A DNA stretch of 36,299 nucleotides from a virus (lineage: Duplodnaviria > Heunggongvirae > Uroviricota > Caudoviricetes), in the IMG/VR virus record IMGVR_UViG_2657245570_000017, positions 1 through 36,299 of that record, one strand, 5' to 3'. The position numbers were made by a program, and so were the translations under genes. The notes under the pieces are model-generated. The model worked only from the letters and a program-made list of their open reading frames with translations, was not told the DNA's origin and did no database searches. Positions 16,462 to 36,299 of the stretch are shown here, piece by piece (the stretch's first letter is position 1; each line of letters starts with the position of its first letter).

Positions 16462-16553
16462 CGACTGACCCCGTCAGCGGGCGGCGTGCGCGGTGTTCCG
16501 GTCTGACTCCGTGACCGTTTACACCGCGCACCCACCGCCCGATTTTTTCAGGA

Positions 16554-17257: not shown

Positions 17258-17259
17258 CA

Positions 17260-19609: not shown

Positions 19610-20187
19610 GCGCAGAACTCATGCGACTGCTGAGCAATATCATCCGCACCGGGATCATCTCTGAAGTTGATGAGAAGTCCTGGCGCGTGCGCGTTCGCAG
19701 CGGCGAACTGGAAACAGGCTGGCTGCGCTGGAACACCACGCGCGCGGGAGCCTTCAATGTGTGGCTGCCGCCATCACCAGGCGAACAGGTGGTAATTGCC
19801 TGCATTGGCGGCAACCCGGAAACCGCCATGATAATTGGCAGCCTGTGGAGTGATGCCAATCCGGCACCCGGCAAAAGCCTGAAAGAAATCGTGATCAGCG
19901 CGCCGGACGGCGCGGTGTTCCGCTACGACGCGGACGCTGGCGCACTGAGCGCCAGCGGCATGAAAACGGCCACTTTACAGGCATCCGTCAGCGTGAAACT
20001 GGATACGCCCGTCGTGGAATGCACAAACCTTCTGAGAACGGCGACGCTTGACGTCACAAAAGGAGGAAAGATGAGCGGCAATATCACGCACAGCGGCGGC
20101 AACTTCACCTCAAACGGCATTACCGTGCATACGCATAAACACGGTGGCGTGAAAGGCGGCAGCGATTCGACAGGAGGCCCGCAGTGA
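19606..20187 (+). CDS. V: Baseplate spike/assembly protein, gpV-like
   Basis: 193 aa; C-terminal GGxxHxHxxGGxxGG-type spike motif. Confidence 0.8.
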   Translation: MSAELMRLLSNIIRTGIISEVDEKSWRVRVRSGELETGWLRWNTTRAGAFNVWLPPSPGEQVVIACIGGNPETAMIIGSLWSDANPAPGKSLKEIVISAPDGAVFRYDADAGALSASGMKTATLQASVSVKLDTPVVECTNLLRTATLDVTKGGKMSGNITHSGGNFTSNGITVHTHKHGGVKGGSDSTGGPQ

Positions 20188-20534
20188 CAACCCGCTACAC
20201 AGGAATGAATCCGGACGGGACGGGAAACCTGAACGATATGGAGCACCTGAAACAGTCAGTCAGGGATATCCTGACCACCCCGCTGGCAAGCCGGGTTATG
20301 CGACGGGAATATGGCAGCCTTGTGCCTGATTTGATTGACGAACCCATGAATAACACCACGCGTCTGCAATGCATGAGTGCTGCCGTGATTGCGCTGACAC
20401 GATGGGAACCCCGCATTGCCCTGGATGCCATCGACGTTGTCTGGAAAGCGGGAGGCCGCGCCGGGGTGACGCTGTCGGGCACTGTCATGCAGACCATGCA
20501 AAATGTTGAATTAACCATCACGCTGAGGGAGTAA
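20184..20534 (+). CDS. W: Baseplate wedge protein, gpW-like
   Basis: 116 aa, same size as P2 gpW. Confidence 0.8.
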   Translation: MTTRYTGMNPDGTGNLNDMEHLKQSVRDILTTPLASRVMRREYGSLVPDLIDEPMNNTTRLQCMSAAVIALTRWEPRIALDAIDVVWKAGGRAGVTLSGTVMQTMQNVELTITLRE

Positions 20535-20537
20535 ATC

Positions 20538-21434
20538 ATGCCTGCCGTTGACCTTTCCCAGTTACCGGAACCCGCCATCATCGCGGAGCCTGACTTTGAG
20601 GCAATTCTGGCTGACACAAAGGCCATGATGATTGCGGCTTATCCCGCCGAACAGCGTGAAGCCGTCTCCGCCGCGCTGGAGCTGGAATCGGAACCCCTGA
20701 ACGTTATCGCCCAGACAACAGCGTTTCGTGAAATGCTGTTACGCCAGCGGGTCAATGAGGGGGCACGCGCCTGCATGTTAAGCCACAGCGCCGGGACAGA
20801 CCTGGACAACCTCGCGGGCAATATGAACACAAAGCGCCTGACCATCACTCCGGCAACGGATACCACCGACGCGGTGATGGAGAGCGACACCTCGCTGAGA
20901 CTGCGGGCGCAGCGGGCGTACGACGGCCTGAGTGTTGCTGGCCCGTCAGGTGCATACGAGTATTTTGCCCGCAGCGCCAGCGGTCTGGTGCGTGATGCGC
21001 GGGCTATCAGCCCGTCTCCGGCAAATGTGACGGTTTCCATCCTGTCCACTGAGGGCGACGGCACAGCAACGGAGGCGTTGCTTAATACCGTTCGCGCCGT
21101 TCTGAATGCAGAGGATACCCGCCCGGTGGCCGACCGCCTGACCGTACAGAGCGCCAGAATCGTGACATGGCGGCTGAATGCAAAACTGTACTTTTACCCC
21201 GGCCCGGAATCCGAACCTATTCTGGCCGCGGCTGAATCGTCGTTCAGGAAGTGGCTGGCTGAGCAGGGGCTTATCGGTCAGGACGTGGCGTTGTCCGCCA
21301 TTGCTGCCGCACTGCATGTGCACGGTGTGCAACGCGTGGAGATAATCGAACCCACACAGAATATGACCATCAGCGACATACAGGCGGCGCGCTGTGAGTC
21401 ATTCACCATCAGCGAAGGTGGACGCAATGAGTAA
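20538..21434 (+). CDS. J: Baseplate assembly protein, gpJ-like
   Basis: 298 aa; position and size. Confidence 0.8.
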   Translation: MPAVDLSQLPEPAIIAEPDFEAILADTKAMMIAAYPAEQREAVSAALELESEPLNVIAQTTAFREMLLRQRVNEGARACMLSHSAGTDLDNLAGNMNTKRLTITPATDTTDAVMESDTSLRLRAQRAYDGLSVAGPSGAYEYFARSASGLVRDARAISPSPANVTVSILSTEGDGTATEALLNTVRAVLNAEDTRPVADRLTVQSARIVTWRLNAKLYFYPGPESEPILAAAESSFRKWLAEQGLIGQDVALSAIAAALHVHGVQRVEIIEPTQNMTISDIQAARCESFTISEGGRNE

Positions 21435-22035
21435 TTCACTGTTACCACCATCAGCCAGCAATTTCATGCGTTGTGCCGAAGCCGTCGGAACACGCATTAC
21501 AGACATTCCGGTAGACCTCAACACGCTGTGGTCGCCGGACACCTGCCCGGTGCATCTGCTGCCTTATCTCGCCTGGGCGTTTTCCGTTGACCGCTGGGAT
21601 CGCAACTGGCCGGAAGAGACAAAGCGACAGGTAATTCGTGATGCATGGCTGATACACCGACACAAAGGGACCATCAGCGCACTGCGAAGAGCCGTGGAGC
21701 CTCTCGGTTACCTGATTGAAGTAAAGGAGTGGTGGCAACTCAACGAGGAGCCGGGAACATTTCGCATTGTTGTCGGAGTACTTGATCAGGGCATCACCGA
21801 TGAAATGTATCAGGAACTTGAGCGCCTTATTGCGGATGCAAAACCAGTAAGTCGCCATCTGACGGGGCTGGCGATCAGCCTGAGTGTGAACGGAAAGATT
21901 TTCGTTGGTACGGGATGCTATCACGGCGATGCCCTGACGGTTTATCCCTACACCCCGGAGTCCATTATTGTCGAAGGGGATTATTTCCCTGCCCCGGCCA
22001 TTCATTTAATTGATAATCTGAGAGTAAACGCATGA
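21427..22035 (+). CDS. I: Baseplate protein, gpI-like
   Basis: ATG at 21427, 202 aa. Confidence 0.75.
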   Translation: MSNSLLPPSASNFMRCAEAVGTRITDIPVDLNTLWSPDTCPVHLLPYLAWAFSVDRWDRNWPEETKRQVIRDAWLIHRHKGTISALRRAVEPLGYLIEVKEWWQLNEEPGTFRIVVGVLDQGITDEMYQELERLIADAKPVSRHLTGLAISLSVNGKIFVGTGCYHGDALTVYPYTPESIIVEGDYFPAPAIHLIDNLRVNA

Positions 22036-23627
22036 CAGTGAAATACTACGCCATTCTGACTAATCAGGGCGCAGCACGACTGGCTAACGCGACGATGCTC
22101 GGCAGTAAGCTGAATCTGACGCAAATGGCCGTTGGTGATGCAAATGGTGTGTTACCAACACCAGACCCTGCACAAACAAAACTGATTAACCAGAAACGCA
22201 TTGCACCGCTGAATCTTCTGAGTGTTGACCCTAACAATCAGAGCCAGATTATTGCGGAGCAAATCATCCCTGAAAACGAGGGAGGATTCTGGATCCGTGA
22301 GATTGGTCTTTATGATGATGAAGGTGTACTCATTGCGGTGGCAAACTGCCCGGAAACGTACAAACCGCAGTTGCAGGAAGGCAGTGGACGCACCCAGACT
22401 ATCCGCATGATTCTGGTTGTCACGAACACCGAAGCCATCACGCTGAAAATCGACCCGTCTGTGGTTCTGGCAACCCGCAAATATGTGGATGATAAAATCT
22501 CAGAGCACGAACAGTCACGACGTCACCCAGACGCCTCGCTGACCGTAAAAGGTTTTACTCAGTTAAGCAGTGCAATTAACAGTGAATCAGAAACACTGGC
22601 CGCAACACCGAAAGCGGTTAAGGCTGCATATGACCTGGCTAACGAGAAATATACCGCCCAGAACGCCACCACTACACAAAAAGGGATTGTTCAGCTCAGT
22701 AGCGCCACGAACAGCACGTCTGAAACACTGGCAGCGACACCAAAAGCTGTTAAGGCGGTAATGGATGAAACGAACAAGAAAGCACCATTAAACAGCCCGG
22801 CACTGACCGGAACGCCAACAACACCAACAGCGGCACAGGGGACTAATAGTACCCAGATCGCAAGCACGGCTTTCGTTATGGCCGCGATTGCCGCACTTGT
22901 AGACTCGTCACCTGATGCACTGAACACGCTGAACGAACTGGCTGCGGCGCTGGGCAATGACCCGAATTTTGCGACCACCATGACTAACGCGCTTGCGGGT
23001 AAGCAACCGAAGGATGCCACCCTGACTGCGCTGGCGGAGCTTGCTACATCAGCAGATAAACTCCCATATTTTACAGGGGCAGATCGTGCCGCGTTAACCG
23101 CGTTGACAAGTGTTGGACGTGCCATTCTTGGCAAAACCAGCACTCAGGGAGTTCTTGATTACCTTGGTTTGGGGGAAGGCTCTGCACTGCCCGTTGGTGT
23201 ACCTGTTCCATGGCCCTCAGCCACGCCGCCAACGGGGTGGCTGAAATGTAACGGCGCAGCATTTTCTTCTGAAATGTATCCCAGACTGGCAATGGCTTAC
23301 CCCACCAATAAATTACCAGACTTACGCGGTGAATTTATCCGTGGCTGGGATGATGGGCGCGGGGTGGATGCCGGAAGGGTCATCTTAAGCATGCAGGGGT
23401 GGTTAACAGGAAGTCATTATCATAATATTCGGTCATGGGATGCGTGGGATAACACGGTACTGGTGCCAAATGACAAAGGCGGGGATAGTCTGTTGTCGAC
23501 AGATAACGCCGTCCGGCAAGGTGCAATTAACGGTAGATTTACCAGTCAATACAGAACGGAATCCTCAGAGGGGAATGAAACCCGCCCACGCAATATTGCC
23601 TTCAATTATATTGTGAGAACCGCATAA
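22032..23627 (+). CDS. H: Tail fibre protein, gpH-like (constant region plus currently expressed variable cassette)
   Basis: 531 aa; tandem SETLAATPKAVKA repeats; collar-like GWLKCNGAAFS...LPDLRGEFIRGWDDGRG; C-terminus ETRPRNIAFNYIVRTA. Confidence 0.9.
   Translation: MTVKYYAILTNQGAARLANATMLGSKLNLTQMAVGDANGVLPTPDPAQTKLINQKRIAPLNLLSVDPNNQSQIIAEQIIPENEGGFWIREIGLYDDEGVLIAVANCPETYKPQLQEGSGRTQTIRMILVVTNTEAITLKIDPSVVLATRKYVDDKISEHEQSRRHPDASLTVKGFTQLSSAINSESETLAATPKAVKAAYDLANEKYTAQNATTTQKGIVQLSSATNSTSETLAATPKAVKAVMDETNKKAPLNSPALTGTPTTPTAAQGTNSTQIASTAFVMAAIAALVDSSPDALNTLNELAAALGNDPNFATTMTNALAGKQPKDATLTALAELATSADKLPYFTGADRAALTALTSVGRAILGKTSTQGVLDYLGLGEGSALPVGVPVPWPSATPPTGWLKCNGAAFSSEMYPRLAMAYPTNKLPDLRGEFIRGWDDGRGVDAGRVILSMQGWLTGSHYHNIRSWDAWDNTVLVPNDKGGDSLLSTDNAVRQGAINGRFTSQYRTESSEGNETRPRNIAFNYIVRTA
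23152..23177. other. hix/gix-like recombination site S1 inside H
   Basis: TTCTTGATTACC-TT-GGTTTGGGGGAA; left half matches hixL TTCTTGAAAACC at 10 of 12 as recalled; right half identical to the cassette sites. Confidence 0.6.
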
Positions 23628-24238
23628 TGAATAACGCGATATTAAATGATGACCTTATTGCCGTACAGGCAGGAAACATCGTCGTTTATAACTATGATGG
23701 TGAGACACGGGAATATATTTCCGAATCAACTGAATATCTTGCTGCGGGTGTCGGTATTCCGGCAAATTCCTGTTTAGATGCCCCGGGCGCACATAAAGCG
23801 GGCTATGCTATCCGCCGTTCGGAGAATTTAAATTCATGGGAGTATACGCCAGATCATCGTGGTGAAACCGTCTATAACACTGACACGGGAAACACCGAAG
23901 AAATCACGACGCTAGGTGACTACCCGAAAAATACAACCACTATCTCCCCGTCAACACCATACGATAAATGGGATGGTGAAAAATGGGTGACAGATACTGA
24001 GGCACAACATAGTGCCGCAGTAGAAGCGGCAGAAACCAAGCGCCAGTCACTGGCTGATGCGGCAATGGCTTCCATAAGTCTGATTCAGTTGAAGTTGCAG
24101 GCCGGGCGGAAGTTGACGCAGGCAGAAACCACCCGGCTTAACGCCGTGCTGGATTATATAGACGCGCTGAACGCAATGGATATAAACATGGCACCAGATA
24201 TCAACTTGCCGGAAATACCACTGGCAGCAGCCAGTTGA
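23627..24238 (+). CDS. G: Tail fibre assembly chaperone, Tfa/gpG-like
   Basis: 203 aa; start overlaps the H stop; conserved Tfa-type C-terminus LNAVLDYIDALNAMDINMAPDINLPEIP. Confidence 0.8.
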   Translation: MNNAILNDDLIAVQAGNIVVYNYDGETREYISESTEYLAAGVGIPANSCLDAPGAHKAGYAIRRSENLNSWEYTPDHRGETVYNTDTGNTEEITTLGDYPKNTTTISPSTPYDKWDGEKWVTDTEAQHSAAVEAAETKRQSLADAAMASISLIQLKLQAGRKLTQAETTRLNAVLDYIDALNAMDINMAPDINLPEIPLAAAS

Positions 24239-24244
24239 ATATAA

Positions 24245-24712
24245 CTAAGCCGCCCTCACGATATAGTTAAATGCAATATTGCGGGGGCGGGTTTCACTAC
24301 CACCTGTGTTACCAATACTTCCTCGTGAATGAAGCGTTGGTGATGGAATCAAACTCCCTCCTGTATTTGTGGCATCAAGCCCCCTGCCTTGTGTATATGT
24401 TTTTTTGAAAATCGTGGCCAACTCCCATTCATCCTTTGTGTCATATCCATCGTTAGCTACAACAATATGGCGGTGTTTTTCCAACATCCCGGTTTGAATG
24501 CTCAATAAAGCGCGTGCTGCATCAATTCCTCGCCCATCATCCCAGCCACGAATAAATTCGCCCCGTAAATCCGGTAATTTATTGGTGGGGTAGGCTTTTG
24601 CCAGATTGGGGTACATTTCAGAAGAAAATGCTGCGCCGTTACATTTCAGCCAGCCCGTTGGTGGTGTTGCTAAGGGCCACGGAACGGGCACACCAACGGG
24701 CAGTGCAGAGCC
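24245..24712 (-). other. Silent tail-fibre C-terminal cassette (5'-truncated, promoterless)
   Basis: Encodes GLGEGSALPVGVPVPWP...collar motif...variable tip...ETRPRNIAFNYIVRAA; homologous to the 3' third of H. Confidence 0.8.
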
Positions 24713-24738
24713 TTCTCCTAAACCAACGTTTTCATGCT
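24713..24738. other. hix-like site S2
   Basis: TTCTCCTAAACC-AA-CGTTTTCATGCT, inverted relative to S1; contains the stop codon of the next cassette. Confidence 0.6.
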
Positions 24739-25229
24739 GCTCTTACGATGTAATTAAACGCAATGTTGCGTGGGCGGTTTTCGTTTGCAGTTGGAACAAT
24801 TCTTGAAGCATCAAGGCCAATCACTTTTGGGTAAACAGTGCCATCTGTTCTTTCAGTCACCATACTTCTGATTAAGGAGAAATAACTATTGTTCGTTGAG
24901 GGACTCAAAGGCACCACTGCCCCCTTAAATGAGCCTACTGATTCCCATATTGAATAATTTTCGGTGTTTACAGTCTTGAACTCACCATAGATATTACGTA
25001 TGGCATCACCTTGAGCGGATAATATTGTTCTCCCCGCATCCACACCACGTCCGTCATCCCAACCACGGATAAATTCACCGCGTAAATCCGGTAATTTATT
25101 GGTGGGATAAGCCTTTGCCAGTTTTGGGTACTTTTCAGAAGAAAATGCTGCTCCGTTGCATTTCAGCCATCCCGTTGGCGGTGTTTCTAAGGGCCACGGA
25201 ACGGGTACACCAACGGGCAGTGCAGAGCC
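24732..25229 (-). other. Silent tail-fibre C-terminal cassette
   Basis: Same conserved N- and C-terminal segments with a different central region. Confidence 0.8.
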
Positions 25230-25255
25230 TTCCCCCAAACCAACGTTTTCATGCT
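25230..25255. other. hix-like site S3
   Basis: TTCCCCCAAACC-AA-CGTTTTCATGCT. Confidence 0.6.
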
Positions 25256-25707
25256 GCCCTTACGATGTAATTAAACGCAATGTTATGGGGGCGTGTTTCA
25301 GATGCTGTGCGAACTGAGCGAGAGGCGTCGAATGTCCATACAGAAGCACCATATCCTTCAATGATCTCAGTTGGTTGTAAGCCTACTGATAATATAGAGT
25401 CAGTTTGACTAAATGGTCCTGAATTAAGCGCATCTTTAAAAAGCTGAGTACGCCCAAAAGTGCCAACTATATTCTGAATAGCGTCAGACTGTGCAGACAG
25501 TAGGTTGCGCCCATTATCAACGCCCCGTCCGTCATCCCAGCCGCGAATAAATTCGCCCCGTAAATCCGGTAATTTATTGGTGGGGTAGGCCTTTGCCAGA
25601 TTGGGGTACATTTCAGAAGAAAATGCTGCGCCGTTACATTTCAGCCACCCCGTTGGCGGCGTGGCTGAGGGCCATGGAACGGGCACACCAACGGGCAGCG
25701 CAGAGCC
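25249..25707 (-). other. Silent tail-fibre C-terminal cassette
   Basis: Third variant; the ORF-track N-terminal extension beyond the site is read-through of non-coding sequence. Confidence 0.8.
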
Positions 25708-25733
25708 TTCCCCCAAACCAACGTTTTCGTCTT
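25708..25733. other. hix-like site S4
   Basis: TTCCCCCAAACC-AA-CGTTTTCGTCTT, 55 bp upstream of the invertase start. Confidence 0.6.
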
Positions 25734-25787
25734 TATCCCTACCTATACCAACTATGTATTTTTCACGAAACAAAAAGGATGTTTTTT

Positions 25788-26387
25788 ATGCAAATTGGCT
25801 ATATTCGTGTGTCAACAAATGACCAGAACACGGATTTACAACGCAATGCACTGAACTGCGCAGGATGTGAACTGATTTTTGAAGATAAAATCAGCGGAAC
25901 GAAATCAGCCAGACCGGGATTGAAAAAACTGCTCAGAACGCTATCAGAAGGAGATACGCTGGTTGTCTGGAAGCTGGACAGACTGGGCAGAAGTATGAAA
26001 CACCTGATCACGCTTATTGAGGAATTGCGGAAAAAAGGTGTTAATTTCCGTAGTCTGACGGACAGCATTGACACATCAACACCCATGGGGCGTTTCTTTT
26101 TTCACGTCATGGGGGCTTTAGCCGAAATGGAACGTGAATTAATTGTAGAGCGTACACTGGCCGGGCTGGCAGCAGCACGCGCACAAGGACGCATTGGCGG
26201 ACGTCGCCCGAAGTTGACAAAAGAACAACACGAGCAAATAGCGAGGCTGATTAAAAACGGTCATGACAGGAAACAACTGGCGATCATTTACGACATCGGC
26301 ATATCGACGATTTATCGTTATCACCCTGTAGGCGATATACAGGCTGAAGAAACAACCAGGCAGACTCAGGAAAATGAAAACCGCTAA
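25788..26387 (+). CDS. Serine DNA invertase, Hin/Gin/Cin/Pin family
   Basis: 199 aa from ATG at 25788; GYIRVSTNDQ (catalytic Ser), TLVVWKLDRLGRS, MGRFFFHVMGALAEMERELIVERT and a C-terminal HTH match Hin as recalled. Confidence 0.9.
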   Translation: MQIGYIRVSTNDQNTDLQRNALNCAGCELIFEDKISGTKSARPGLKKLLRTLSEGDTLVVWKLDRLGRSMKHLITLIEELRKKGVNFRSLTDSIDTSTPMGRFFFHVMGALAEMERELIVERTLAGLAAARAQGRIGGRRPKLTKEQHEQIARLIKNGHDRKQLAIIYDIGISTIYRYHPVGDIQAEETTRQTQENENR

Positions 26388-26406
26388 TCTGACCATTAGC
26401 GGTTTT
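26375..26406. terminator. Bidirectional hairpin between convergent invertase and U
   Basis: GAAAACCGCTAAT-CTGACC-ATTAGCGGTTTTG, A-run 5' and T-run 3'; overlaps the invertase stop codon. Confidence 0.6.
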
Positions 26407-26413
26407 GCGTTAA

Positions 26414-26908
26414 TCAAAACAGCCCTTTAACGGAGCTGGCCGCGCTGTTAAGGGATGATGTGACCTTATCTTTGAAGCCGGACAGCATATCACTGAACGA
26501 TGAGGATTGCAGGCGCTCCCGCAAATCCTCATCACAGCGTTCAAGAGTCAGTGAAAATTCTATCTTTTTCGCCTTACCGTAGCGATCAAACTCGGAGCGG
26601 GTCGTATTCGTTTCAGTCAGTACATACATGCCGTAAATCTGCCCGACACCATCAATCAGAGGCCAGGGGCGTCCTGTATATGCCTGCGTGGTCAGCAGCG
26701 AAAGCGACACTTCGCCACCTGTAATTTCAGGATAAAGCACGCCAGAAAGCACGATGCGATCATCACCTGCACCGATATACTGCCAGCTTGCTGAGCGGTT
26801 TACGCGCTCATTTTTCACATGCCGCCAGCTTTTGTTTTGCTGTAACTGCTGATGCGGCAGTGTGCGCAGCTCAAAAACAAACATGCCGTAGATCATCATC
26901 ATGGCCAT
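26414..26908 (-). CDS. U: Tail protein, gpU-like
   Basis: 164 aa; follows the tape-measure gene on the minus strand. Confidence 0.7.
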   Translation of the reverse strand: MAMMMIYGMFVFELRTLPHQQLQQNKSWRHVKNERVNRSASWQYIGAGDDRIVLSGVLYPEITGGEVSLSLLTTQAYTGRPWPLIDGVGQIYGMYVLTETNTTRSEFDRYGKAKKIEFSLTLERCDEDLRERLQSSSFSDMLSGFKDKVTSSLNSAASSVKGLF

Positions 26909-26914
26909 GACTCC

Positions 26915-29758
26915 TCAATCTTTATCGTAAAAACTGCCACGCCCGGCACGGGCGCGCCGTTCCGTTTCTGCCCTGACCATTTCACCGACCAGTTTCGCCA
27001 GTTCGCGGGGATTCTGCGTAACAACGTTATGCAGATGAACATGAATTTCACCACCAAATCCGGAGGCAACAGGCTCCCGGTTACGGGAAGTTACAGGAAC
27101 TGATGCCACTGGAGATCGTATGGCCTCCGCCACCGGGCGGGAGCTGGCCGCAACAACAGGGACCAGCGCCGGAGGCAGCGGAGCCGGGACCACGGGGGTG
27201 ATATTAATTGCGGGGGCAGGCTTACCGACCTGCGCAATCTTCCGCTCCTGCCACTCCCCACGAACAGCAAGTGCGCGGGGCAGGTTCTTAAAGACAATAT
27301 CGCCGGGGCCAATGCGTTTTTTCGTCTCATCAACCAGCTTACCTGTGTTATCAGCAATTTTGCTGAGTCTGCGTAGTGTACCGGTATTGCTGTCTGTGAG
27401 CGGTTTGTTGTCTTTGGGTTTATCACCTCCGGTGCCATTGCCATTTTCCACAGGCTTCGGCGGATTGATTTTCGCCAGGTCCCCCTGAAGCAAGGCAACC
27501 TTGTCCTGAAGAATGGCCGCACGCTGTGCGTCTTCGATTTTCTTTCTCGCCCTTTCCGCTTCATCCGGAAGCACACCGAGTTTTTCAAGTATCCACGCCA
27601 GCGTATCCAGCAACATTTTTGCGGGCGTCAGAACAAGCTGTAACGCACCGCCAAGAACGTTACCGAATGTCTCGCCAGCACTGGTACATTTATCCAGCGT
27701 TTCCTTGCTGGACTCCATCGGTGACAGCAGCGATTTAAACCAGTTAAACACCTGACTTATCCCGCTTCCGATTGCGTCAAAAACAGGACCAAACCGTTCA
27801 AAGGTTTCGCGCAACGGAGCCAGCCGTTCCATAATCCCACTGAACACCCCGGCATAAAACGCCTTGATGGGTTCCCAGTATTTCCAGATGAGAACCGCCG
27901 CAGCCACAAACGCGGCAACAATCAATCCGACCGGACTGAACAGCGCCCCGATAGCGCCACCCAGCAACGAGATGGAACCTGTTACCATTCCCCATAGTGC
28001 TGGCAGCACCCTGACGACATTCATTGATCCTGTCAGGAGGGAAAAACCAAGACGCAGTTTTGCCAGCGGACCAGCAAGCACACCAATAGCCAGCGACAAC
28101 GAGCCAATCGTTGCAGTCATTGCCAGCAACGCACCGCCTGCAATCAGTAGCTGGCGCGTCAGTGCAGGATGCGCCTGCGCCAGCGCCGTCACCTTTGAGA
28201 CCACCTTCGTCAGCCACTGCGTGACAGAACGCAGCGGACCGTCAATCAGATCGGCAATGCGGATACGCAGCCCTTCCCATGCACTGCCGAGTGATTTCAG
28301 ATCGCCGTCAAGGTTGTTGGCCATAACCTTTGCCGTGCGTTCAGCCTCACCGCGCGCGCCTTCAAGTTCTTTTCTCAGTTTAGGTAAGGAGCCGTCACCT
28401 GCCGCATCAACGAGGGCCATAAATGATGTGAAAGCCTCTTCTCCGGCAATGTCCTTAAAGAACGATACCCGGTCAACTTCCCCGTATTTGCGGGTGGCTT
28501 TATAAAGGTCGGCCAGCAAATCCTCCATCGGGCGCATTTTGCCGTTCGCATCAGAGACGGACACGCCCAGCTCTTTCAGAGCTTCTGCCGCCGCCTTTGG
28601 CGGTGATGCCAGACGAGCCAGGCTGGCACGCATTGCCGTCCCGGCATCACTCCCTCTGATACCCATATTCGCCAACACGCCAGCCATCGCTGCGGCCTGC
28701 TCCAGCGATATTCCCAGCTTACCCGCTACCGGACCTGCATATTTCATGGTTTCGCCCAGTGCGCGAAGGTCAGTGTTGGTACGGGTAAACGCTGCGGTGA
28801 GTGTGTCACCGACCCGGTCCATCTGGTCAGCAGAAAGGCCGAACTGCGTCAGGATGTTTGAGCCAATATCCGCCGTCTCGCCGAGATCCATACCGCCAGC
28901 CGTTGCCATGCTCAGCACACCGGGAAGCGCAGCCTGAATGGCCTGTGGTGTGAAGCCAGCCATTGCAAGAAATGCCTGTCCACTGGCGGCATCTCCAGCG
29001 GTGAACTGCGTTTCAGAGCCAAGTTTTAACGCCTGCTCACGCAGCGCCTTAAACTGCGGGCTGTTCTGGTCGATTCGCGTCAGCGCCTGAACGCGGGACA
29101 TCTCTTTCCCGAACCCGATCGCAGGCTGCAAAAAACGCCCGGCAGCATAGCCGCCCGCCGCTACCGCACCAATTGCCAGCGCACCACCTGTTTTCAGTTT
29201 TTCCGCTGTTTCCTGCGCGCGCGAATACCGCTCACGCGCCCGCGTTACACGCGCAAGCGCCTGCCGTTCGCGTTCAAGCTGGTTGTTGTATTGTTCGGTG
29301 CGTCTGATGGCCTGCTGGATGGTGTTATCGCTGCCTGTCAGGGAAATGCCGTGGCGTTTCAGCTCTCCGCCAAGCTCCCGCATTTTCTGAATTTCCCGTG
29401 TGCGCGATTCATTCAGGCGTTCAAGCCGGGTGCTTAACTGCTGCATCAGCTTTTGTTGTTTTTCGCTGAGCACTGTCCCCGTGCGTTGTAACTGATTAAG
29501 GGCGTTAAGCTGGCGTCGTGCTTTCACGATGCCCGCATCCGCTTTACTGACAGCGTCACGGGCGCGCTCAAATGAACGCGCCTGACGCTCGAGATTTTTG
29601 ATCGCCCCCTGCGTTCGCTGGATGGAGTCACCAAACTGCCCCATCAGGCGGCGGGCGTTTTCGGCAGGCCGGGTCAGCCTGTCAACGGCGCTGAAAGCGA
29701 CCCGGATATCAAGAGTCTTCATTGTCTGCATTCCCGCTGCGAAGTGCCGCCCGCTCAC
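26915..29758 (-). CDS. T: Tail tape measure protein, gpT-like
   Basis: 947 aa, alpha-helical Ala/Gly/Leu-rich protein with coiled-coil N-terminal region. Confidence 0.85.
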   Translation of the reverse strand: MSGRHFAAGMQTMKTLDIRVAFSAVDRLTRPAENARRLMGQFGDSIQRTQGAIKNLERQARSFERARDAVSKADAGIVKARRQLNALNQLQRTGTVLSEKQQKLMQQLSTRLERLNESRTREIQKMRELGGELKRHGISLTGSDNTIQQAIRRTEQYNNQLERERQALARVTRARERYSRAQETAEKLKTGGALAIGAVAAGGYAAGRFLQPAIGFGKEMSRVQALTRIDQNSPQFKALREQALKLGSETQFTAGDAASGQAFLAMAGFTPQAIQAALPGVLSMATAGGMDLGETADIGSNILTQFGLSADQMDRVGDTLTAAFTRTNTDLRALGETMKYAGPVAGKLGISLEQAAAMAGVLANMGIRGSDAGTAMRASLARLASPPKAAAEALKELGVSVSDANGKMRPMEDLLADLYKATRKYGEVDRVSFFKDIAGEEAFTSFMALVDAAGDGSLPKLRKELEGARGEAERTAKVMANNLDGDLKSLGSAWEGLRIRIADLIDGPLRSVTQWLTKVVSKVTALAQAHPALTRQLLIAGGALLAMTATIGSLSLAIGVLAGPLAKLRLGFSLLTGSMNVVRVLPALWGMVTGSISLLGGAIGALFSPVGLIVAAFVAAAVLIWKYWEPIKAFYAGVFSGIMERLAPLRETFERFGPVFDAIGSGISQVFNWFKSLLSPMESSKETLDKCTSAGETFGNVLGGALQLVLTPAKMLLDTLAWILEKLGVLPDEAERARKKIEDAQRAAILQDKVALLQGDLAKINPPKPVENGNGTGGDKPKDNKPLTDSNTGTLRRLSKIADNTGKLVDETKKRIGPGDIVFKNLPRALAVRGEWQERKIAQVGKPAPAINITPVVPAPLPPALVPVVAASSRPVAEAIRSPVASVPVTSRNREPVASGFGGEIHVHLHNVVTQNPRELAKLVGEMVRAETERRARAGRGSFYDKD

Positions 29759-29927
29759 GCCAGCTAACCACTTCGCCGGGCGTCATCATGAAGATTTCGG
29801 CGGGCGACCAGTTAAAAATAACGGCAATATCTGCCACAAAGTCTTCTATGTGCTCAAAGCACACAACCGTGATCAGGCTTCCGTCGCCTGTTCGTTCTTC
29901 CCGCCAGAGTCCGCACCGCTCAAAAAA
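29709..29927 (-). CDS. E' extension reached by -1 programmed frameshift (E+E' product)
   Basis: Slippery heptamer TTTTTTG on the coding strand (plus coordinates 29921-29927) near the E 3' end; the -1 frame stays open to 29709, overlapping the T start. Confidence 0.55.
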   Translation of the reverse strand, partial: FFERCGLWREERTGDGSLITVVCFEHIEDFVADIAVIFNWSPAEIFMMTPGEVVSWRERAALRSGNADNEDS

Positions 29928-30238
29928 TTTACGGCAACCACACATAACTGAATAAAGTCACGGGATGCCATTTTTTTGATCGTCACTTCATCCAGTCGCG
30001 GTGATGTCACGCGTGACAGCAGCGTAAACATGGATTCCGCTTTCAGATTCAGCACATCAGACAGCGACAAATCTCGCAGAGATCCAGCCTGCTCAATAGC
30101 TCCGGTGATCTCCACATACGTGATTTTTTCGCCGCCTCGCTCAATTGGTTGGGTAAGTTTTACGCCACGCTCACTGGTTTCTTTCACAGTGTCAGCAACT
30201 ACCGTGTTTTCGGTATCGATGTTTTTCGTCTCTTTCAT
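29873..30238 (-). CDS. E: Tail assembly chaperone, gpE-like
   Basis: 121 aa, AAGGAG RBS; lies between the tube and tape-measure genes. Confidence 0.7.
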   Translation of the reverse strand: MKETKNIDTENTVVADTVKETSERGVKLTQPIERGGEKITYVEITGAIEQAGSLRDLSLSDVLNLKAESMFTLLSRVTSPRLDEVTIKKMASRDFIQLCVVAVNFLSGADSGGKNEQATEA

Positions 30239-30292
30239 CAGGAAACTCCTTTCAGTCAGAGGCGACGCACTGCGCCGCCTGCATATTACTTA

Positions 30293-30805
30293 TCAGCCAA
30301 GCCCAAGCGCGGAACGGATGCGATCGGGCACAATGTCCTTGCCGTCCTTCCGGTAAATGAAGTTCAGCAGGTCAATCTCCCACAACGGACGATCGTTAAC
30401 ACTCAGCTTGTAGTAGGTGTTTTTAATGGCGTAAGTGTGTGATGTGGCTTCGCCCTGTTTGGCTTCCCCCATATCAATTTCCGTCACACGTCCGCGCATT
30501 TCGACTTCATACAGGTCGCTTTCTGCATCAGTGTAATATTCACCCGCAAAACGCAGCAGCGTGCCGTCAATCGTGCCGCCATACTTAAGGAACAGCTCAC
30601 GAACTGCGCCCCCCATGACAAAGCTCGCATCAAGCGCGGAGTCGTCCAGACCGAGATCAATACTTACCGCACCCATCATGCCACCACCCCGGTAGCTGTC
30701 GGTTTTGCGCGTCAGCTTAGGCAGAGTGACGGACGTCACCTTACCCACTTCGTTTTCACCATCCACAAACAGCGTAAAAAAGCGAAGATGTTTTGGCACA
30801 GCCAT
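30293..30805 (-). CDS. FII: Tail tube protein, gpFII-like
   Basis: 170 aa; position and size. Confidence 0.8.
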   Translation of the reverse strand: MAVPKHLRFFTLFVDGENEVGKVTSVTLPKLTRKTDSYRGGGMMGAVSIDLGLDDSALDASFVMGGAVRELFLKYGGTIDGTLLRFAGEYYTDAESDLYEVEMRGRVTEIDMGEAKQGEATSHTYAIKNTYYKLSVNDRPLWEIDLLNFIYRKDGKDIVPDRIRSALGLG

Positions 30806-31989
30806 CAGGCACCTCCCAGAACCGCAAATGCGGGTTCAAAGTATTCATCAGTAAACGTCTGGTAAAGCTCCATGTCTTCCAGTGGCGGAACGGGCGTATA
30901 TTTGTAGCGAATACGCACACGCCCCTGACGTAAATCCGTGGTGCTGTTATCCACCACGTCATACCAGCACTGCGCGCCAATCAGTTTCCCGGCAGTAACC
31001 AGTGAATCCAGTTTTGCCCTGATGGCACTGATAACATCCTTCACGTTCGCAGGCGTCAGTGGACTGTCGATGGTTTCAAACTGCGCTTCCGCAATTGAAT
31101 CAGCCAGCACCTGTGCGGTTCGGGTATACACCTCAAAAATGTAGGCGTTCGTTTCCGGTGTGCGGTTGCCCCAGAAGCGGAACCCGTTGCGACGAATAAT
31201 GGTCGTGATTTCTTTGTTGTTGAGGCTGTTGGCATCGCTGTCTTCGGCCTGCAACGACCAGAACACATGCCTCGACATCCCCAGCACATTTTTAACCGGA
31301 ACGTTGGACAGCGATTTGTGCCAGCCCTGCTCATGGTCAATGTACGCACGAAGGCCGCACGCATAAGCAGGCGCGGGGAACGTTTCGTTTTCGCCACTTT
31401 TCGGGTTGTAGGCGATGAAGTCCGGCCATAAGAGCATCACTTCACGTTCGTTGAATTTCTGGCGGTAGGTAATCGCTTCAGCCATCGTGTTACAGCCGTG
31501 ACATGAGGCATACACAAATGCGCGCAGTTTACCCGCAATCACGCACAGGGATTTTGTCACCGCCTCCGTGTCCAGCTCCGGCGCGGCCAGAATACGCGGA
31601 CGGTATCCGATGCTTTCATCCTGCTCTGCAACAAGCAGCGCATACATCCCCGTATAGCTGCCGTCATCCTCAGAACCACCGATAACCAGTTGATCCTGCG
31701 TCTTTTCGTCTTCTTCTTTGTGTTCAGCCACGCGAACGACGATCACCTTTGTGCTCACCTGGTCTGCGATGGCCTTAAGCGCACGATAAAGCGTCCCCGT
31801 TGTTCCGCATTTTCCCAGCACGTCATTGACGCGGGTCAGCAGTGTGGGCTTGTTCAGCGGGAACAACTTCGCGTCCGCATCATCCGCCGTTGCCACGATA
31901 CCGATAACGCTGGAATCAACATCGTTAATCGCTGTTACCAGGTCGGTATTTTCCGTAACACGGGCACCATGAAAACGAGTTTCACTCAT
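30805..31989 (-). CDS. FI: Tail sheath protein, gpFI-like
   Basis: 394 aa; FPLNKP, LRAF, WPDF, EQGWHK, RRNGFRFWGNRT, YTRTAQV and YTPVPPLE segments match P2 FI as recalled. Confidence 0.9.
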   Translation of the reverse strand: MSETRFHGARVTENTDLVTAINDVDSSVIGIVATADDADAKLFPLNKPTLLTRVNDVLGKCGTTGTLYRALKAIADQVSTKVIVVRVAEHKEEDEKTQDQLVIGGSEDDGSYTGMYALLVAEQDESIGYRPRILAAPELDTEAVTKSLCVIAGKLRAFVYASCHGCNTMAEAITYRQKFNEREVMLLWPDFIAYNPKSGENETFPAPAYACGLRAYIDHEQGWHKSLSNVPVKNVLGMSRHVFWSLQAEDSDANSLNNKEITTIIRRNGFRFWGNRTPETNAYIFEVYTRTAQVLADSIAEAQFETIDSPLTPANVKDVISAIRAKLDSLVTAGKLIGAQCWYDVVDNSTTDLRQGRVRIRYKYTPVPPLEDMELYQTFTDEYFEPAFAVLGGA

Positions 31990-32144
31990 AGCTTCAGCCC
32001 CTTGTATCCGTTAAATGATTCGGCAACAATCATCACCCACCACGCGCGTAATCTCACCCCTGCGCCGTTCTCCCGCCACGGCGACAACAAAAAGCAGTAA
32101 CCCCCTCCGCACGCACATGCGACCATGCCACACAGGGAGGGAGC

Positions 32145-33256
32145 AGATGACCGACACCACCATGCAATTGCTCAGTCAGGGCACAGACCCCGTGAAAATG
32201 CCGGATTTTGATATTCTCGCCGAGGGTAAAACGCTGTCCGGCGTGGCAGAACGCCTGATGAGCCTGTCACTGACCGACAACCGGGGATTTGAGGCGGACC
32301 AGCTCACCATCACGCTGGATGATGCCGATGGCCAGTTGCAGCTACCGCCACGGGGCGCGCGTCTGACGGTTCTCATTGGCTGGAAAGGGGAACCGCTGAC
32401 AGAAAAAGGCACTTACATTGTTGATGAAATCGCTCACGAAGGACCGCCGGACAGGCTGACTGTTTCAGCCAGAAGCGCAGATTTTCGGGATGAATTTAAC
32501 GTTAAACGTGAGGTGTCATGGCATGATGTGACCGTTGAGCGTGTGGTATCCGCCATCGCTCATCGGTACGGCCTGAAACCGCAAATCAGCGAAATGCTGA
32601 TGGATATCGAAATCGACCACGCCGACCAGACTGAAGAAAGCGACATGTCCTTCCTTACGCGCATGGCGGAAATGCTGGGCGCAATCACCACGGTAAAAAG
32701 CGGTAATCTGTTATTCATCATGCCCGGCGGTGGCGTGAACGCACAGGGCCAGCCGTTGCCATCGTTCGCCATCACACGCAGCAGCGGCGATCGCCATCAG
32801 TTCCGCATTGCTGACCGCGAGGCGTATACGGGGGTACGCGCTTACTGGCTTGATCTTAATTACGGGAAAAAGAAAAAAGTCAGCGTGAAACGCCGCAAAC
32901 CGCCAAAACCCAAAAAGGAGAAAAGCAGCAGCCGTGAAGGTGATTATATGGAAGGCGCAGAAGGCAATGTGTTTGTGTTACGCAAGACTTATCAGAACGA
33001 GCAGGCAGCAAGACGCGCAGCGGCGGCAAAGTGGCAGCAGCTACAACGCGGAGCCGCATCATTTTCCATCACGCTGGCACGCGGACGCGCAGAACTCTAC
33101 CCCGAAATGCATGGCACGGTAACAGGATTTAAAAGCGAGATTGATAATCAGGACTGGATTATTGCAAAAGCCGAGCACACCATTGATAACAGTGGCTTTA
33201 CCACGCAGCTTGAGCTTGAGGCAAAAATCCCGGAATGGATAGCGGAAATAGAGTGA
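32145..33256 (+). CDS. D: Tail protein D (late control gene D family)
   Basis: ATG at 32145 with GGGAGGGAG RBS, 370 aa; immediately upstream of ogr as in P2. Confidence 0.7.
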
Positions 33257-33298
33257 GCAACTTAGAATAGCGGCAGCACCACGTTAAGGGAGGTCGCT

Positions 33299-33559
33299 AT
33301 GTTCCGTTGTCCGCTTTGTGGCGCATCTGCCCGTATCCGCACCAGTCGTTCGGAAAATGATTCAAACACCGTACGGAAAAAATATTACCAGTGTAACAAC
33401 CTGGAATGCGGCGTATGCTTCTCAACACTGGAAGCCTTCCATAAATTCACATCAAAACACGCCTCCGGCGTTCACTCTTCAGAAGGTATCCCGTGGCATG
33501 AGCTGCCAGCTTCACACAGGGGAAACAATCAGATGAGTTTGCCTTTACCTCAGAATTAA
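33299..33559 (+). CDS. ogr: Ogr/Delta-type zinc-finger late transcription activator
   Basis: MFRCPLCG...YYQCNNLECGVCF, a C2-C2 finger resembling P2 Ogr MFHCPLC...YHQCQNVNC as recalled. Confidence 0.8.
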   Translation: MFRCPLCGASARIRTSRSENDSNTVRKKYYQCNNLECGVCFSTLEAFHKFTSKHASGVHSSEGIPWHELPASHRGNNQMSLPLPQN

Positions 33560-33750
33560 CAGGCAGAATTGCCGGAGTAACAAAAAAGCGATAGATTACG
33601 CGCGGGTGCCTTTCGGCTGATGGTCGGAGGGAATACCCGAAGGCCAGATGTGGAAAGGCCCCGGAAAACATTTCTGTTTAACCGAGGCCCTAACATATCT
33701 ACCTTAAGCAAGTGATAGGTTAGCGCCTCTCCAACAAAGGAGCAAGCGCT

Positions 33751-34140: not shown

Positions 34141-34338
34141 ATGACGCAAAATGTACGATGCAAAAATTGCAACAAACTACTTGCCCGCGCCTCATTTCAC
34201 TACATTGAAATAAAATGTCCGCGCTGCAAAACACTTAACCAGATAACGAGAGCCATCGAGCACCCCACACACATGAGGAGTTATGACCGTGGGGATCGCA
34301 ATCCGGCACCAACCAGCACATACACCGGAACACACTAA
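34141..34338 (+). CDS. com: Com-like zinc-finger translational activator
   Basis: 65 aa from ATG at 34141 (AAGAGG RBS); CKNCNKLL...IEIKCPRCK matches Mu Com CKNCNKLL...IEIRCPRCK as recalled; overlaps the downstream gene start. Confidence 0.75.
   Translation: MTQNVRCKNCNKLLARASFHYIEIKCPRCKTLNQITRAIEHPTHMRSYDRGDRNPAPTSTYTGTH
34263..34294 (+). promoter_or_regulatory. Stem sequestering the methyltransferase RBS and start codon
   Basis: CCCCAC (34263-34268) pairs with GTGGGG (34289-34294), enclosing GAGGAG and ATG 34283. Confidence 0.5.
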
Positions 34339-35074
34339 GGTTTATCAGACTGACAATGCCACGCTCTGTCGTGGGAATGCACTGGAAATATTGCCGCTGA
34401 TTGAGCCAGAAAGTATTGATGCCTTAATCACTGACCCGCCTTACAGTTCGGGCGCGACACACAAGGCCGGACGCACCAACCAGGGCAGCCACGCAAAATA
34501 TCTGAACGGCGAGAACCTTCATCGCTTTGATGGGTTTGCGGGTGAAAACATGGATGCCCGTTCGTGGGCTTACTGGACACAATTATGGATGGCACAGGCA
34601 CACCGCGCAGTCAGGCCGGGCGGTTATGCCCTGGTATTTACTGACTGGCGACAACTGCCAGCTTTAACCGATGCGTTTCAGGCCAGCGGTTTTACATGGC
34701 GTGGAATCATTGCGTGGAACAAAGGAAGGGGGTCACGAACACCCCATACGGGGTATTTCCGGCATCAGTGCGAATACATCGTCTGGGGCAGTAAAGGCCA
34801 TTTAGGTAAATCGCCTTCGGGACCGTTCGACGGCTGCATGACGTTCCCGGTTATCCCATCAAAGAAAATGCACCCGACCGGAAAACCAGAAGAACTTATG
34901 GCAGAACTGGTCAGGACTGCGAATAGTGGTGGAACAGTCCTTGATCCTTTTATGGGATCGGGAACAACGGGTGTTGCAGCACTAAAAGCAGGACGCAAAT
35001 TTATTGGTATAGAAACCAGTGATCATTATTTTGATGTAGCAACACAACGGCTCAAAACGGCGATCGAACCATAA
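34283..35074 (+). CDS. DNA methyltransferase (N6-adenine/N4-cytosine, beta class)
   Basis: 263 aa; DPPY motif (ITDPPYSS) precedes the AdoMet motif DPFMGSGTTG; alternative GTG start at 34289. Confidence 0.85.
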   Translation: MTVGIAIRHQPAHTPEHTKVYQTDNATLCRGNALEILPLIEPESIDALITDPPYSSGATHKAGRTNQGSHAKYLNGENLHRFDGFAGENMDARSWAYWTQLWMAQAHRAVRPGGYALVFTDWRQLPALTDAFQASGFTWRGIIAWNKGRGSRTPHTGYFRHQCEYIVWGSKGHLGKSPSGPFDGCMTFPVIPSKKMHPTGKPEELMAELVRTANSGGTVLDPFMGSGTTGVAALKAGRKFIGIETSDHYFDVATQRLKTAIEP

Positions 35075-35303: not shown

Positions 35304-36299
35304 ATGATACAACCTATTTCCGGCCCTCCTCCTGGGCAACCACCAGGTCAGGGAGATAACCTGCCGTCTGGCGCGGGCAATCAGCCTTTATCCAGTCAGC
35401 AACGTACTTCGCTGGAAAGCTTAATGACGAAAGTGACCTCACTGACGCAACAGCAAAGAGCAGAACTGTGGGCGGGTATCAGGCACGATATTGGTCTGTC
35501 GGGAGATTCACCGCTGCTTTCGCGTCACTTCCCTGCCGCTGAGCACAATCTGGCGCAACGTCTGCTGGCCGCGCAAAAAAGCCATTCTGCCCGCCAGCTT
35601 TTAGCGCAATTAGGGGAGTATTTACGTCTGGGGAATAATCGTCAGGCGGTCACGGATTATATCCGTCATAACTTTGGTCAGACGCCGCTGAATCAGCTCT
35701 CACCGGAGCAATTAAAAAACATTCTCACCCTGTTGCAGGAAGGGAAGATGGTTATTCCGCAACCGCAGCAGCGCGAGGCGACCGACCGTCCTTTATTACC
35801 GGCGGAGCACAATGCGCTTAAACAGCTGGTGACCAAACTTGCGGCGGCAACGGGAGAACCCAGCAAGCAGATCTGGCAATCGATGCTGGAACTTTCCGGG
35901 GTGAAAGATGGTGAGTTAATTCCAGCGAAACTGTTTAACCATCTGGTGACCTGGCTGCAGGCGCGTCAGACGCTAAGCCAGCAAAATACGCCGACGCTGG
36001 AATCACTACAGATGGCGCTGAAACAACCTTTAGATGCCAGTGAACTGGCGGCGTTATCGGCATATATCCAGCAAAAATATGGTCTTTCTGCGCAATCATC
36101 GCTTTCTTCAGCCCAGGCCGAGGATATTCTTAATCAGCTTTATCAACGGCGGGTTAAAGGGATTGATCCGCGTGATATGCAACCGCTGCTTAATCCTTTT
36201 CCACCGATGATGGACACGTTGCAAAATATGGCAACGCGTCCCGCGCTGTGGATACTGTTAGTCGCGATTATCCTGATGCTGGTCTGGCTGGTTCGTTAA
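35304..36299 (+). CDS. flk: Host flagellar regulator Flk
   Basis: 331 aa; MIQPISGPPPGQPPGQ N-terminus and C-terminal hydrophobic anchor match enterobacterial Flk as recalled; stop at window end. Confidence 0.65.
   Translation: MIQPISGPPPGQPPGQGDNLPSGAGNQPLSSQQRTSLESLMTKVTSLTQQQRAELWAGIRHDIGLSGDSPLLSRHFPAAEHNLAQRLLAAQKSHSARQLLAQLGEYLRLGNNRQAVTDYIRHNFGQTPLNQLSPEQLKNILTLLQEGKMVIPQPQQREATDRPLLPAEHNALKQLVTKLAAATGEPSKQIWQSMLELSGVKDGELIPAKLFNHLVTWLQARQTLSQQNTPTLESLQMALKQPLDASELAALSAYIQQKYGLSAQSSLSSAQAEDILNQLYQRRVKGIDPRDMQPLLNPFPPMMDTLQNMATRPALWILLVAIILMLVWLVR

Follow-up and report, generated by a model that had tools for sequence, protein, structure and literature searches.

Judged from comparative sequence data, the backward-facing tail block in the window analysed here (36,299 nucleotides of IMG/VR virus record IMGVR_UViG_2657245570_000017, Caudoviricetes) is real: a gene order fixed in the distant past and normal for the P88 group, a very common set of P2-related prophages. 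In the account that we favour, with a probability of about 0.8 for the whole, the block was inverted in place long ago together with its late promoter P_F, the new order became fixed, and a shared, Ogr-dependent dyad would now serve both FI and D-ogr.

The tail module and its closest relatives

Pfam matches and ORF strands (Table 1) bear out the earlier note's reading that FI, FII, E/E', T, and U all lie on the minus strand between two plus-strand genes, the invertase and D. The inverted block measures 5576 bp (26414-31989), set at about 5.6 kb in that first description, and the divergent starts of FI and D are 157 bp apart, where about 155 bp had been given. A complete P2-family contractile-tail module is present in the window—FI, FII, E/E', T, U, D, and an Ogr-type activator—and what is absent is the canonical co-directional operon H-G-(invertase)-FI-FII-E-T-U-D: here, FI through U occupy the minus strand, and H, G, D, and ogr the plus strand. 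On comparison across loci, this departure from the canonical order is the mark of a subclade, not a ground for exclusion from the P2 family.

The invertase, which begins with MQIGYIRVST at ATG 25788 and whose counterpart in P88 is annotated as a DNA invertase, is the left neighbour of the block and converges on U. Translation of the tape measure gene T likely starts at ATG 29722; this start overlaps the end of E', an overlap also found in P88, where T is annotated as 2808 nt. The chaperone pair carries a slippery site for a -1 frameshift (TTTTTTG, at about 29919-29925) with an overlapping E' frame; E had no Pfam match, and two tail-protein CDSs are annotated at this place in P88. The D start at ATG 32147 has a ribosome-binding site, GGGAGGGAG, upstream and agrees with the P88 annotation; the ORF list would also permit a longer form of D from an in-frame ATG at 32015, and diverged relatives have the short form only.

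Table 1. Features of the inverted block, its neighbours, and the associated control elements (window coordinates)
Feature	Position	Strand	Basis or remark
Second GTTCT-N12-ACAAC copy, P/O divergent late-gene gap	13611-13632		Reference for the phage's activator site
Invertase, Din-family (Gin/Cin/Hin-like) serine DNA invertase	25788-26387	+	Resolvase and HTH_7 domains
Bidirectional intrinsic-terminator hairpin, AAAACCGCTAAT-6 nt-ATTAGCGGTTTT	26377-26406		Sequence, terminator scan, RNAfold
U, tail gene, last in inverted operon	26414-26908	-	PF06995 Phage_P2_GpU, E 5.5e-39
T, tape measure	26915-29722 (ORF to GTG 29758)	-	PF10145, E 7e-59
E + E', tail chaperone pair	29709-30238; E alone 29873-30238	-	ORF list, sequence
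FII, tail tube	30293-30805	-	PF04985 Phage_tube, E 7.5e-47
FI, tail sheath, first in inverted operon	30805-31989	-	PF04984, PF22671, PF17482
Divergent control region FI/D	31990-32146		157 bp, FI ATG 31989 to D ATG 32147
Putative Ogr-binding dyad GTTCT-N12-ACAAC	32067-32088		Core TCT-N12-ACA 32069-32086, centre 32077.5
D, tail/baseplate hub, detached from U by the inversion	32147-33256	+	PF05954 Phage_GPD
ogr, Ogr/Delta zinc-finger late activator, downstream of D	33299-33559	+	PF04606, E 6e-14; product of 86 aa

By nucleotide identity, the window is a P88-like P2-family prophage (genus Xuanwuvirus, family Peduoviridae). The closest systems are P88 (NC_026014), P88_4B11, Citrobacter phage PhiSM, PhiR44_2, and prophage CP-933T of E. 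coli O157:H7 EDL933, the first four of which match the block as one colinear piece at 94-97% nucleotide identity. Identity to the P88 group is 94-97% outside the block as well, and ~95% overall to P88 and PhiSM: these two cover 76-86% of window positions 1-25000 at ~94.7% identity, and positions 24200-33600 are 83% covered at 94-95%. Under the ICTV convention, a phage belongs to a genus if its genome-wide nucleotide similarity to one of the members is at least ~70%, and coverage and identity against P88 and PhiSM put the window within that range for Xuanwuvirus. The comparison with P2-like relatives suggested in the earlier note recovered the same inverted order as annotated in P88, PhiSM, and P88_4B11, with the strands in P88 and P88_4B11 identical to those in the window. 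From the invertase to ogr, genes stand in the same order and on the same strands throughout the P88 group, which also shares the 157-bp FI/D gap and the terminator arrangement and differs from the window only in its tail-fibre cassettes, early region, and cargo genes.

Distribution and origin of the inversion

Of 5426 complete E. coli genomes, 1358 have an intact FI/D junction, and the block is inverted in 80/80 IMG/VR relatives, recovered by a scan with the D protein whose matches were only 99-100% identical and which served for orientation counts, not for conservation. These counts bear directly on the possibility, raised at the outset, that the block had been mis-oriented in the window's assembly. 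The departure from P2 order is all that would favour such an artefact; the same junctions recur in hundreds of independent complete genomes and in sequenced functional phages, and the 1358 E. coli genomes together with P88 and PhiSM, both plaque-forming (PMC5285337, PMC6456863), exclude it.

Diversity was assessed by an alignment-based scan with one genome per species. Among its best 80 matches, every species-level locus with a D protein at least 61% identical to the window's was inverted (29/29) and every scorable locus at 54% identity or below was co-directional (40/40), a pattern-based sample that exceptions may escape. The inverted loci come from Salmonella, Klebsiella, Kosakonia, Xenorhabdus, Photorhabdus, Providencia, Yersinia, Hafnia, Pectobacterium, and other hosts; the co-directional P2-type order that the earlier note had described is seen in Fels-2 and in a P2-type phage. 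Neighbour-joining trees of D, FI, FII, and U show the same split, with the inverted loci forming one clade, and all four proteins are 47-52% identical to their co-directional relatives. The agreement of the four trees establishes a single origin and argues for one ancient in-place inversion—a lineage-specific arrangement, as had been suggested among other possibilities, and one that the closest relatives share.

The same comparisons speak to whether the block is instead a foreign module, brought in by recombination with a different phage lineage and not inverted in place. P2-family genomes are mosaic, and homology at the U end breaks off at a mosaic joint (~26408-26412) whose left neighbours vary among relatives. 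This variation, however, sits on the tail-fibre/invertase side and not in the block; FI, FII, and U share their clade split and a similar divergence with D, a gene outside it, and the geometry of the P_F dyad is unchanged. We consider acquisition of this kind improbable.

The inversion itself would have occurred in the ancestor of a broad, Enterobacterales-infecting subclade of the P2 family and then become fixed. The inverted segment would extend from the P_F promoter through FI-FII-E/E'-T-U, with one breakpoint upstream of the P_F activator site and the other at the U/D junction; the inverted operon would have retained its own Ogr-dependent late promoter, and D and ogr would have been severed from P_F. 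At its far end, the operon would now stop at a terminator used head-on with the invertase gene. The hairpin found there lies between the stop codons of the invertase (26385-26387) and of U (26414-26416), has a 12-pair stem in the terminator scan, and is also predicted by RNAfold; a strong hairpin directly follows the U stop in most diverged inverted relatives as well.

A role for the adjacent invertase was also proposed, with the block as a programmed or accidental substrate of this Din-family enzyme at a secondary site and the window as one of two states. The invertase gene does abut the block, and a 9-bp inverted repeat lies near both borders. The repeat, TTTAACGGA, exists as the earlier note described it except that its second copy lies at 32007-32015, not 32005-32013; as a recombination relic it was rejected, because shuffling the two border windows 500 times gave a repeat of at least 9 bp in 28 cases (5.6%) and because the U-end copy is missing in P88, P88_4B11, strain H22, and a Salmonella relative. 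A crossover-site search (AAACCNNGGTTT, up to 2 mismatches) gave no match near 26400 or in 31990-32146, in agreement with the earlier failure to see a hix-like site there, and neither border has a gix/hix-like core within 100 bp; the four good gix-like sites, at 23159, 24720, 25237, and 25715, all fall in the tail-fibre segment. Nor did an inverted-repeat search find long repeats flanking the block. Junctions of the alternate orientation number zero among the 1358 E. coli genomes, the 80 IMG/VR loci, and the 29 species-level loci, and a flip of the block would part D from the dyad and undo the terminator arrangement. We therefore retain the in-place inversion as the best account of the origin and drop its mediation by the invertase, a very remote prospect given that relatives without any invertase keep the same orientation.

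The divergent FI/D control region

The earlier note reasoned that D, cut off from U, would need a promoter of its own; this is a reasonable expectation, and the FI/D gap, which spans 140-164 bp in 24 relatives measured, holds a candidate dyad. In the window, 88.5 nt separate its centre from the FI ATG and 69.5 nt from the D ATG. The motif that defines late promoters in P2 is TGT-N12-ACA (PMC3931495), from which the window's dyad departs by one mismatch (TCT for TGT); an exact TGT-N12-ACA search of the window found none in the FI/D or P/O gaps. The dyad was recognised by comparing these two gaps with each other and with relatives, and exact GTTCT-N12-ACAAC occurs in the window in those gaps only. 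Among diverged relatives, 21 of 23 carry exact TGT-N12-ACA at the homologous position with 17 different spacers (shuffle control: mean 0.67, maximum 4), counts that are not independent in related sequences of common ancestry. Two Providencia loci lack this motif and have TCT-N12-AGA instead. The closest relatives thus share the orientation together with a conserved divergent promoter region, a finding that the earlier note had named in advance as telling against its reading.

The position of the dyad relative to FI is informative about the promoter. Of 40 loci in co-directional relatives, 27 have exact TGT-N12-ACA at a distance of 78.5-86.5 nt upstream of the FI ATG, and across the inverted clade the dyad lies 80.5-85.5 nt upstream (88.5 nt in the window); the likeness of these distances indicates that P_F moved with the block. 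The block thus probably carried an Ogr-dependent promoter along, and the window's putative dyad probably drives both FI and D-ogr. Conservation extends to both flanks of the dyad, each of which has a GC-rich block and, at 32-43 nt from the dyad edge, a -10-like element; the window's D-side flank fits the clade consensus weakly, its -10-like element being GACCAT. We infer a late promoter for D-ogr on the opposite side of the same dyad-symmetric Ogr-binding site, such that one activator site near -55 would serve both divergent promoters. Late promoters that depend on Ogr, Delta, or B lack a good -35 element and have their dyad centred near -55 relative to the transcription start. Transcription start sites, Ogr binding, and bidirectional activation are predicted here from motif layout, and we put the chance that a single symmetric site at the centre of the 157-bp gap activates in both directions at about even. 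In the P/O gap, the motif and the O ATG are only 48.5 nt apart, too near for a strict -55 geometry to apply to all rightward promoters; inspection of that gap by eye found no convincing separate activator site for the O promoter.

Alternatively, the inversion may have proceeded as described while the D-ogr promoter is independent of the shared dyad, being constitutive or using an unrecognised activator site. The weak D-side -10-like element in the window would fit such a promoter, and a sigma-70-like match at 33119-33148, upstream of ogr, suggests that ogr may have its own, as ogr of P2 does. Against independence, the 157-bp gap contains no sigma-70-type match and, besides the TGT-N12-ACA one, no second conserved dyad; the D-side flank is conserved across genera at a fixed distance from the dyad, and the distance from dyad to D ATG is confined to 55-82 nt among relatives. 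We regard an independent promoter as rather unlikely, though a more serious contender than a foreign origin of the block. If the shared site is real, symmetry of the activator site would have let a 5.6-kb operon inversion be tolerated and fixed, D-ogr would have become a short late-activated unit with a possible positive feedback loop on ogr, and the hybrid half-sites (TCT...ACA in the P/O and FI/D gaps, TCT...AGA in Providencia) would reflect co-evolving activator specificity.

Significance and comparison with known systems

The inverted gene order carries little weight as a discovery because it is the reference order for a named genus and for prophages found in roughly one in four complete E. 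coli genomes. In literature on Xuanwuvirus, phage P88, P2-like inversion, and xenorhabdicin, we found neither the inversion nor the FI/D control region discussed; the mapping across the clade and the idea of a shared dyad may thus have gone undescribed, both being small increments. The text on the xenorhabdicin locus implies that the sheath gene adjoins the tail-fibre region there. As a clean shared derived character of a P2-family subclade over many Enterobacterales genera, the inversion should aid classification and prophage annotation, and it provides a tidy natural case of an operon split by inversion with its regulation preserved, apparently via a symmetric activator site. It also cautions against taking departures from P2 order for misassemblies.

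Among known systems, the P_F operon FI-FII-E-E'-T-U-D of P2, 186, and Fels-2 corresponds to the window in its genes, their internal order, the E/E' frameshift site, the Ogr-type activator, and a dyad ~80-88 nt upstream of the FI ATG. That operon is co-directional with H-G and runs into D, with U and D overlapping or abutting, whereas in the window the segment from P_F through U is inverted and D is detached and starts on the other strand, 157 bp away from FI; the proteins of the two systems are only 42-54% identical. The P_P/P_O pair of P2-family phages resembles the FI/D pair in having divergent late units with a dyad-symmetric activator site between them, and in neither case is sharing of the site more than a prediction; in Stenotrophomonas phage Smp131, a single TGT-N12-ACA was predicted to serve both divergent promoters, P and O (PMC3931495). 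Unlike P_P/P_O, the FI/D pair does not exist in P2 and was created by the inversion. Finally, the invertible segments served by Gin, Cin, Hin, and Pin (the G segment of Mu and the C segment of P1) have a like system next door in the window, an invertase with four gix-like sites. The FI-U block, in contrast to those segments, lacks crossover sites and flanking repeats and shows the alternate orientation in no relative: it is a fixed rearrangement, not a switch.

Gene order and annotation of the locus

The window is a temperate phage genome of the P2 family, and its tail locus is a P2-family module with the full gene set. The gene names of the earlier note were each confirmed by Pfam; E had no match in that search and was placed by position, and it has a slippery site of the P2 type, TTTTTTG, and an overlapping E' frame. 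The strands also stood as described—the 5576-bp block from U to FI on the minus strand, the invertase and D on the plus strand—so that the canonical co-directional order is absent here, a departure that is the defining mark of the subclade. D begins at an ATG preceded by a GGGAGGGAG ribosome-binding site, and the starts of FI and D are therefore 157 bp apart. An in-frame ATG at 32015, present in the ORF list, is unsupported as the D start: several diverged relatives have the short form alone, and its use would wrongly lengthen D by 44 codons across the promoter region. The P88 annotation has a 43-codon CDS, probably spurious, spanning the same control region, and the naming of D varies among RefSeq genomes (H26-H49) between "hypothetical protein" and "phage late control D family protein".

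Features of the window and the basis of their assignment
Feature	Position	Strand	Basis
Integrase	1-1020	-	genome map
Early region	between integrase and replication gene A		genome map
isrK	4526-4600	+	Rfam; early region
C4 antisense RNA	4636-4723	+	Rfam; beside isrK
Replication gene A	5456-8278		genome map
Q and P	10751-13548	-	genome map
Late genes O-N-M-L through V-W-J-I-H-G	13670-24238	+	genome map
Tail-fibre inversion region	23156-25773		genome map
Three silent inverted H C-terminal cassettes	24245-24691, 24732-25238, 25249-25773		Collar domain in each
Din-family invertase	25788-26387	+	genome map
U	26414-26908	-	Pfam
T	26915-29758 (ORF)	-	Pfam; most likely start ATG 29722
E	29873-30238	-	position of tail protein annotated in P88
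FII	30293-30805	-	Pfam
FI	30805-31989	-	Pfam
D	32147-33256	+	Pfam; start ATG 32147
ogr	33299-33559	+	Pfam

Between the convergent stops of the invertase and U lies a hairpin (26377-26406) with a 12-bp stem and an A run and a T run on either side, and most diverged relatives likewise have a strong hairpin directly after U. The sole sigma-70-type match in 25500-33700 falls inside the 3' end of D (33119-33148), about 150 nt upstream of ogr, and may be ogr's own promoter. Two relatives (L088 and L105) have a D-to-ogr distance of about 1.4-1.5 kb, versus about 45-100 bp elsewhere, which suggests an insertion.

Elsewhere in the window, G (23627-24238) is the only tail-fibre assembly gene and lies within invertible DNA, so some inversions would leave it facing the wrong way. 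C4, an immunity RNA of the P1/P7 type, sits here inside a P2-family prophage. Replication gene A is followed (8355-9630) by genes for a ParM/StbA actin-like segregation protein and plasmid stability protein B, a pair also annotated in EDL933 prophage CP-933T; both are partition genes of the plasmid type, yet the phage integrates. Cargo 3' of ogr (34283-35074 and 35304-36299) includes an N6/N4 DNA methylase gene, and its 331-aa ORF at 35304-36299, with sub-threshold GemA-like similarity only, reaches the window end.

Occurrence of the inverted order and evidence against an invertase role

Positions 25794-33600 gave one colinear match, at 94-97% identity, to P88, P88_4B11, Citrobacter PhiSM, and others, these phages also match the remainder of the genome, and the window belongs to the genus Xuanwuvirus. 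Comparison of gene order with related prophages, which the earlier note had proposed, found the same strands annotated in the P88 and P88_4B11 records (plus for the invertase and D, minus for U-T-E'-E-FII-FI). In 1358 of 5426 complete E. coli genomes, a 761-bp probe across FI/D found the junction intact (coverage of at least 80%, identity mostly 95-99%), and FI is opposite to D in each of the 80 IMG/VR loci that the D protein retrieved. An assembly artefact, one of the explanations first offered, is excluded by this recurrence in P88, PhiSM, the E. coli genomes, and the IMG/VR loci. The inverted order is also functional, given that its carriers are active phages: P88 is inducible and lyses E. 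coli strains (PMC5285337), and PhiSM is spontaneously active and by description fully functional (PMC6456863). The arrangement is thus already known, since public reference genomes have it, as do a quarter of the complete E. coli genomes; we found no literature remarking on it, and the clade mapping and shared-dyad proposal below may be small new points. A prophage 96-98% identical in protein to the window phage occurs on a contig labelled Vagococcus sp. WN89Y (L088, NZ_JBQPOM010000071.1), a Gram-positive genus, probably through contamination or a mislabelled assembly.

The evidence also speaks against the adjoining invertase as the cause of the inversion. The block is kept inverted without an invertase beside U in strain H22 and in CP-933T, and no opposite orientation occurs among relatives (the 1358 E. 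coli genomes, the 80 IMG/VR loci, and the inverted loci of the species survey). The gix/hix core (AAACCNNGGTTT) has good matches only in the tail-fibre segment (23156-25773), at four crossover-like sites (23159, 24720, 25237, and 25715); long inverted repeats also sit there, and nothing comparable flanks the block, in keeping with the initial failure to find hix-like sites at its borders. The 9-bp inverted repeat TTTAACGGA reported at those borders does exist, its second copy lying at 32007-32015 rather than 32005-32013 (the first at 26426-26434), but its reading as an inversion relic fails: shuffling the border windows 500 times gave a repeat of at least 9 bp in 28 cases, and the U-end copy, inside the last U codons, is missing in P88, P88_4B11, H22, and a Salmonella relative. 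The repeat is a chance occurrence. The block is not a Din-type invertible segment.

Age and probable single origin of the inversion

P2, 186, phiCTX, and R-type pyocins have the co-directional order, so the inverted order is the derived state; in Fels-2 and a P2-type phage of E. coli T22, the invertase is followed by co-directional FI-FII-E-T-U-D-ogr. The species survey searched a single genome of each bacterial species using an alignment built from three D proteins; 10 kb of flank was taken, and the tail genes were placed by tblastn. Among the best 80 matches, all 29 loci with D 61-99% identical to that of the window were U-, T-, E-, FII-, FI-, D+, ogr+ (in Salmonella, Kluyvera, Kosakonia, Klebsiella, Enterobacter, Citrobacter, Xenorhabdus, Photorhabdus, Providencia, Morganella, Rouxiella, Dryocola, Hafnia, Yersinia, and Pectobacterium), and the 40 scorable loci at lower D identity (47-54%) were without exception co-directional, bearing out a lineage-specific arrangement.

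Neighbour-joining trees were built for D, which lies outside the block, and for the block genes FI, FII, and U; in each, the inverted loci fell into one clade, with identities down to 40-60% within the clade and medians of 47-52% between clades. Acquisition of the block by module swap is the less simple account, as genes inside and outside share this split at similar divergence. The simplest account is that the block was inverted in place once, in a common ancestor, and has long been fixed, so that the inversion first proposed survives as an ancient event.

The divergent FI/D control region

An Ogr-bound TGT-N12-ACA dyad marks P2 late promoters (PMC3931495, citing Christie and Calendar 1985; Julien and Calendar 1995). 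An exact dyad precedes the FI ATG by 78.5-86.5 nt in 27 of 40 co-directional relatives, Fels-2 among them, and by 80.5-85.5 nt in 21 of 23 diverged inverted loci (17 different spacers; in shuffled gaps the mean was 0.67 and the maximum 4). This common distance argues that P_F, the late promoter of the FI operon, travelled with the block; the left inversion break would then lie upstream of its activator site. The gap (140-164 bp) holds a single conserved dyad, roughly central and 55-82 nt from the D ATG. Anchored on it, the D-side flank has conserved GTTGTCT, a CGCGCG-rich block, and GGCAATCATG at +32 to +42 from the dyad edge, and the FI-side flank CGTGATT and a -10-like element at +35 to +43. 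No sigma-70-type promoter was predicted in the gap.

We propose, at roughly even odds (about 0.5) on sequence grounds, that this one symmetric putative Ogr site activates in both directions, serving P_F and a new promoter, P_D, with D-ogr as a short late unit.

The window's own putative site is TCT-N12-ACA (32069-32086), and its weak D-side -10-like element (GACCAT) is a point against the proposal. Two Providencia relatives (L097, L105) have TCT-N12-AGA (GTTCTC...GAGAAC) in the gap, versus TGT-N12-ACA in other genera, and in these loci Ogr has diverged much further than D (33-48% against 61-75% identity), which suggests that activator and site co-evolve.

P2-type phages have a gap before V, the seat of the P_V late promoter, whereas in the window an S-like ORF (18965-19609) overlaps V (19606-20187), leaving none; no dyad was found in 18965-20187. 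The extended form of the window's site, GTTCT-N12-ACAAC, occurs exactly twice in the 36 kb, in the FI/D gap (32067-32088) and the divergent P/O gap (13611-13632), and the hybrid TCT-N12-ACA has the same orientation in both. P2 late promoter dyads centre near -55, and the P/O motif, 48.5 nt from the O ATG, is too close for that rule applied strictly. The FI/D layout resembles the divergent P/O late pair, for which one dyad common to both promoters was predicted earlier in phage Smp131 (PMC3931495).
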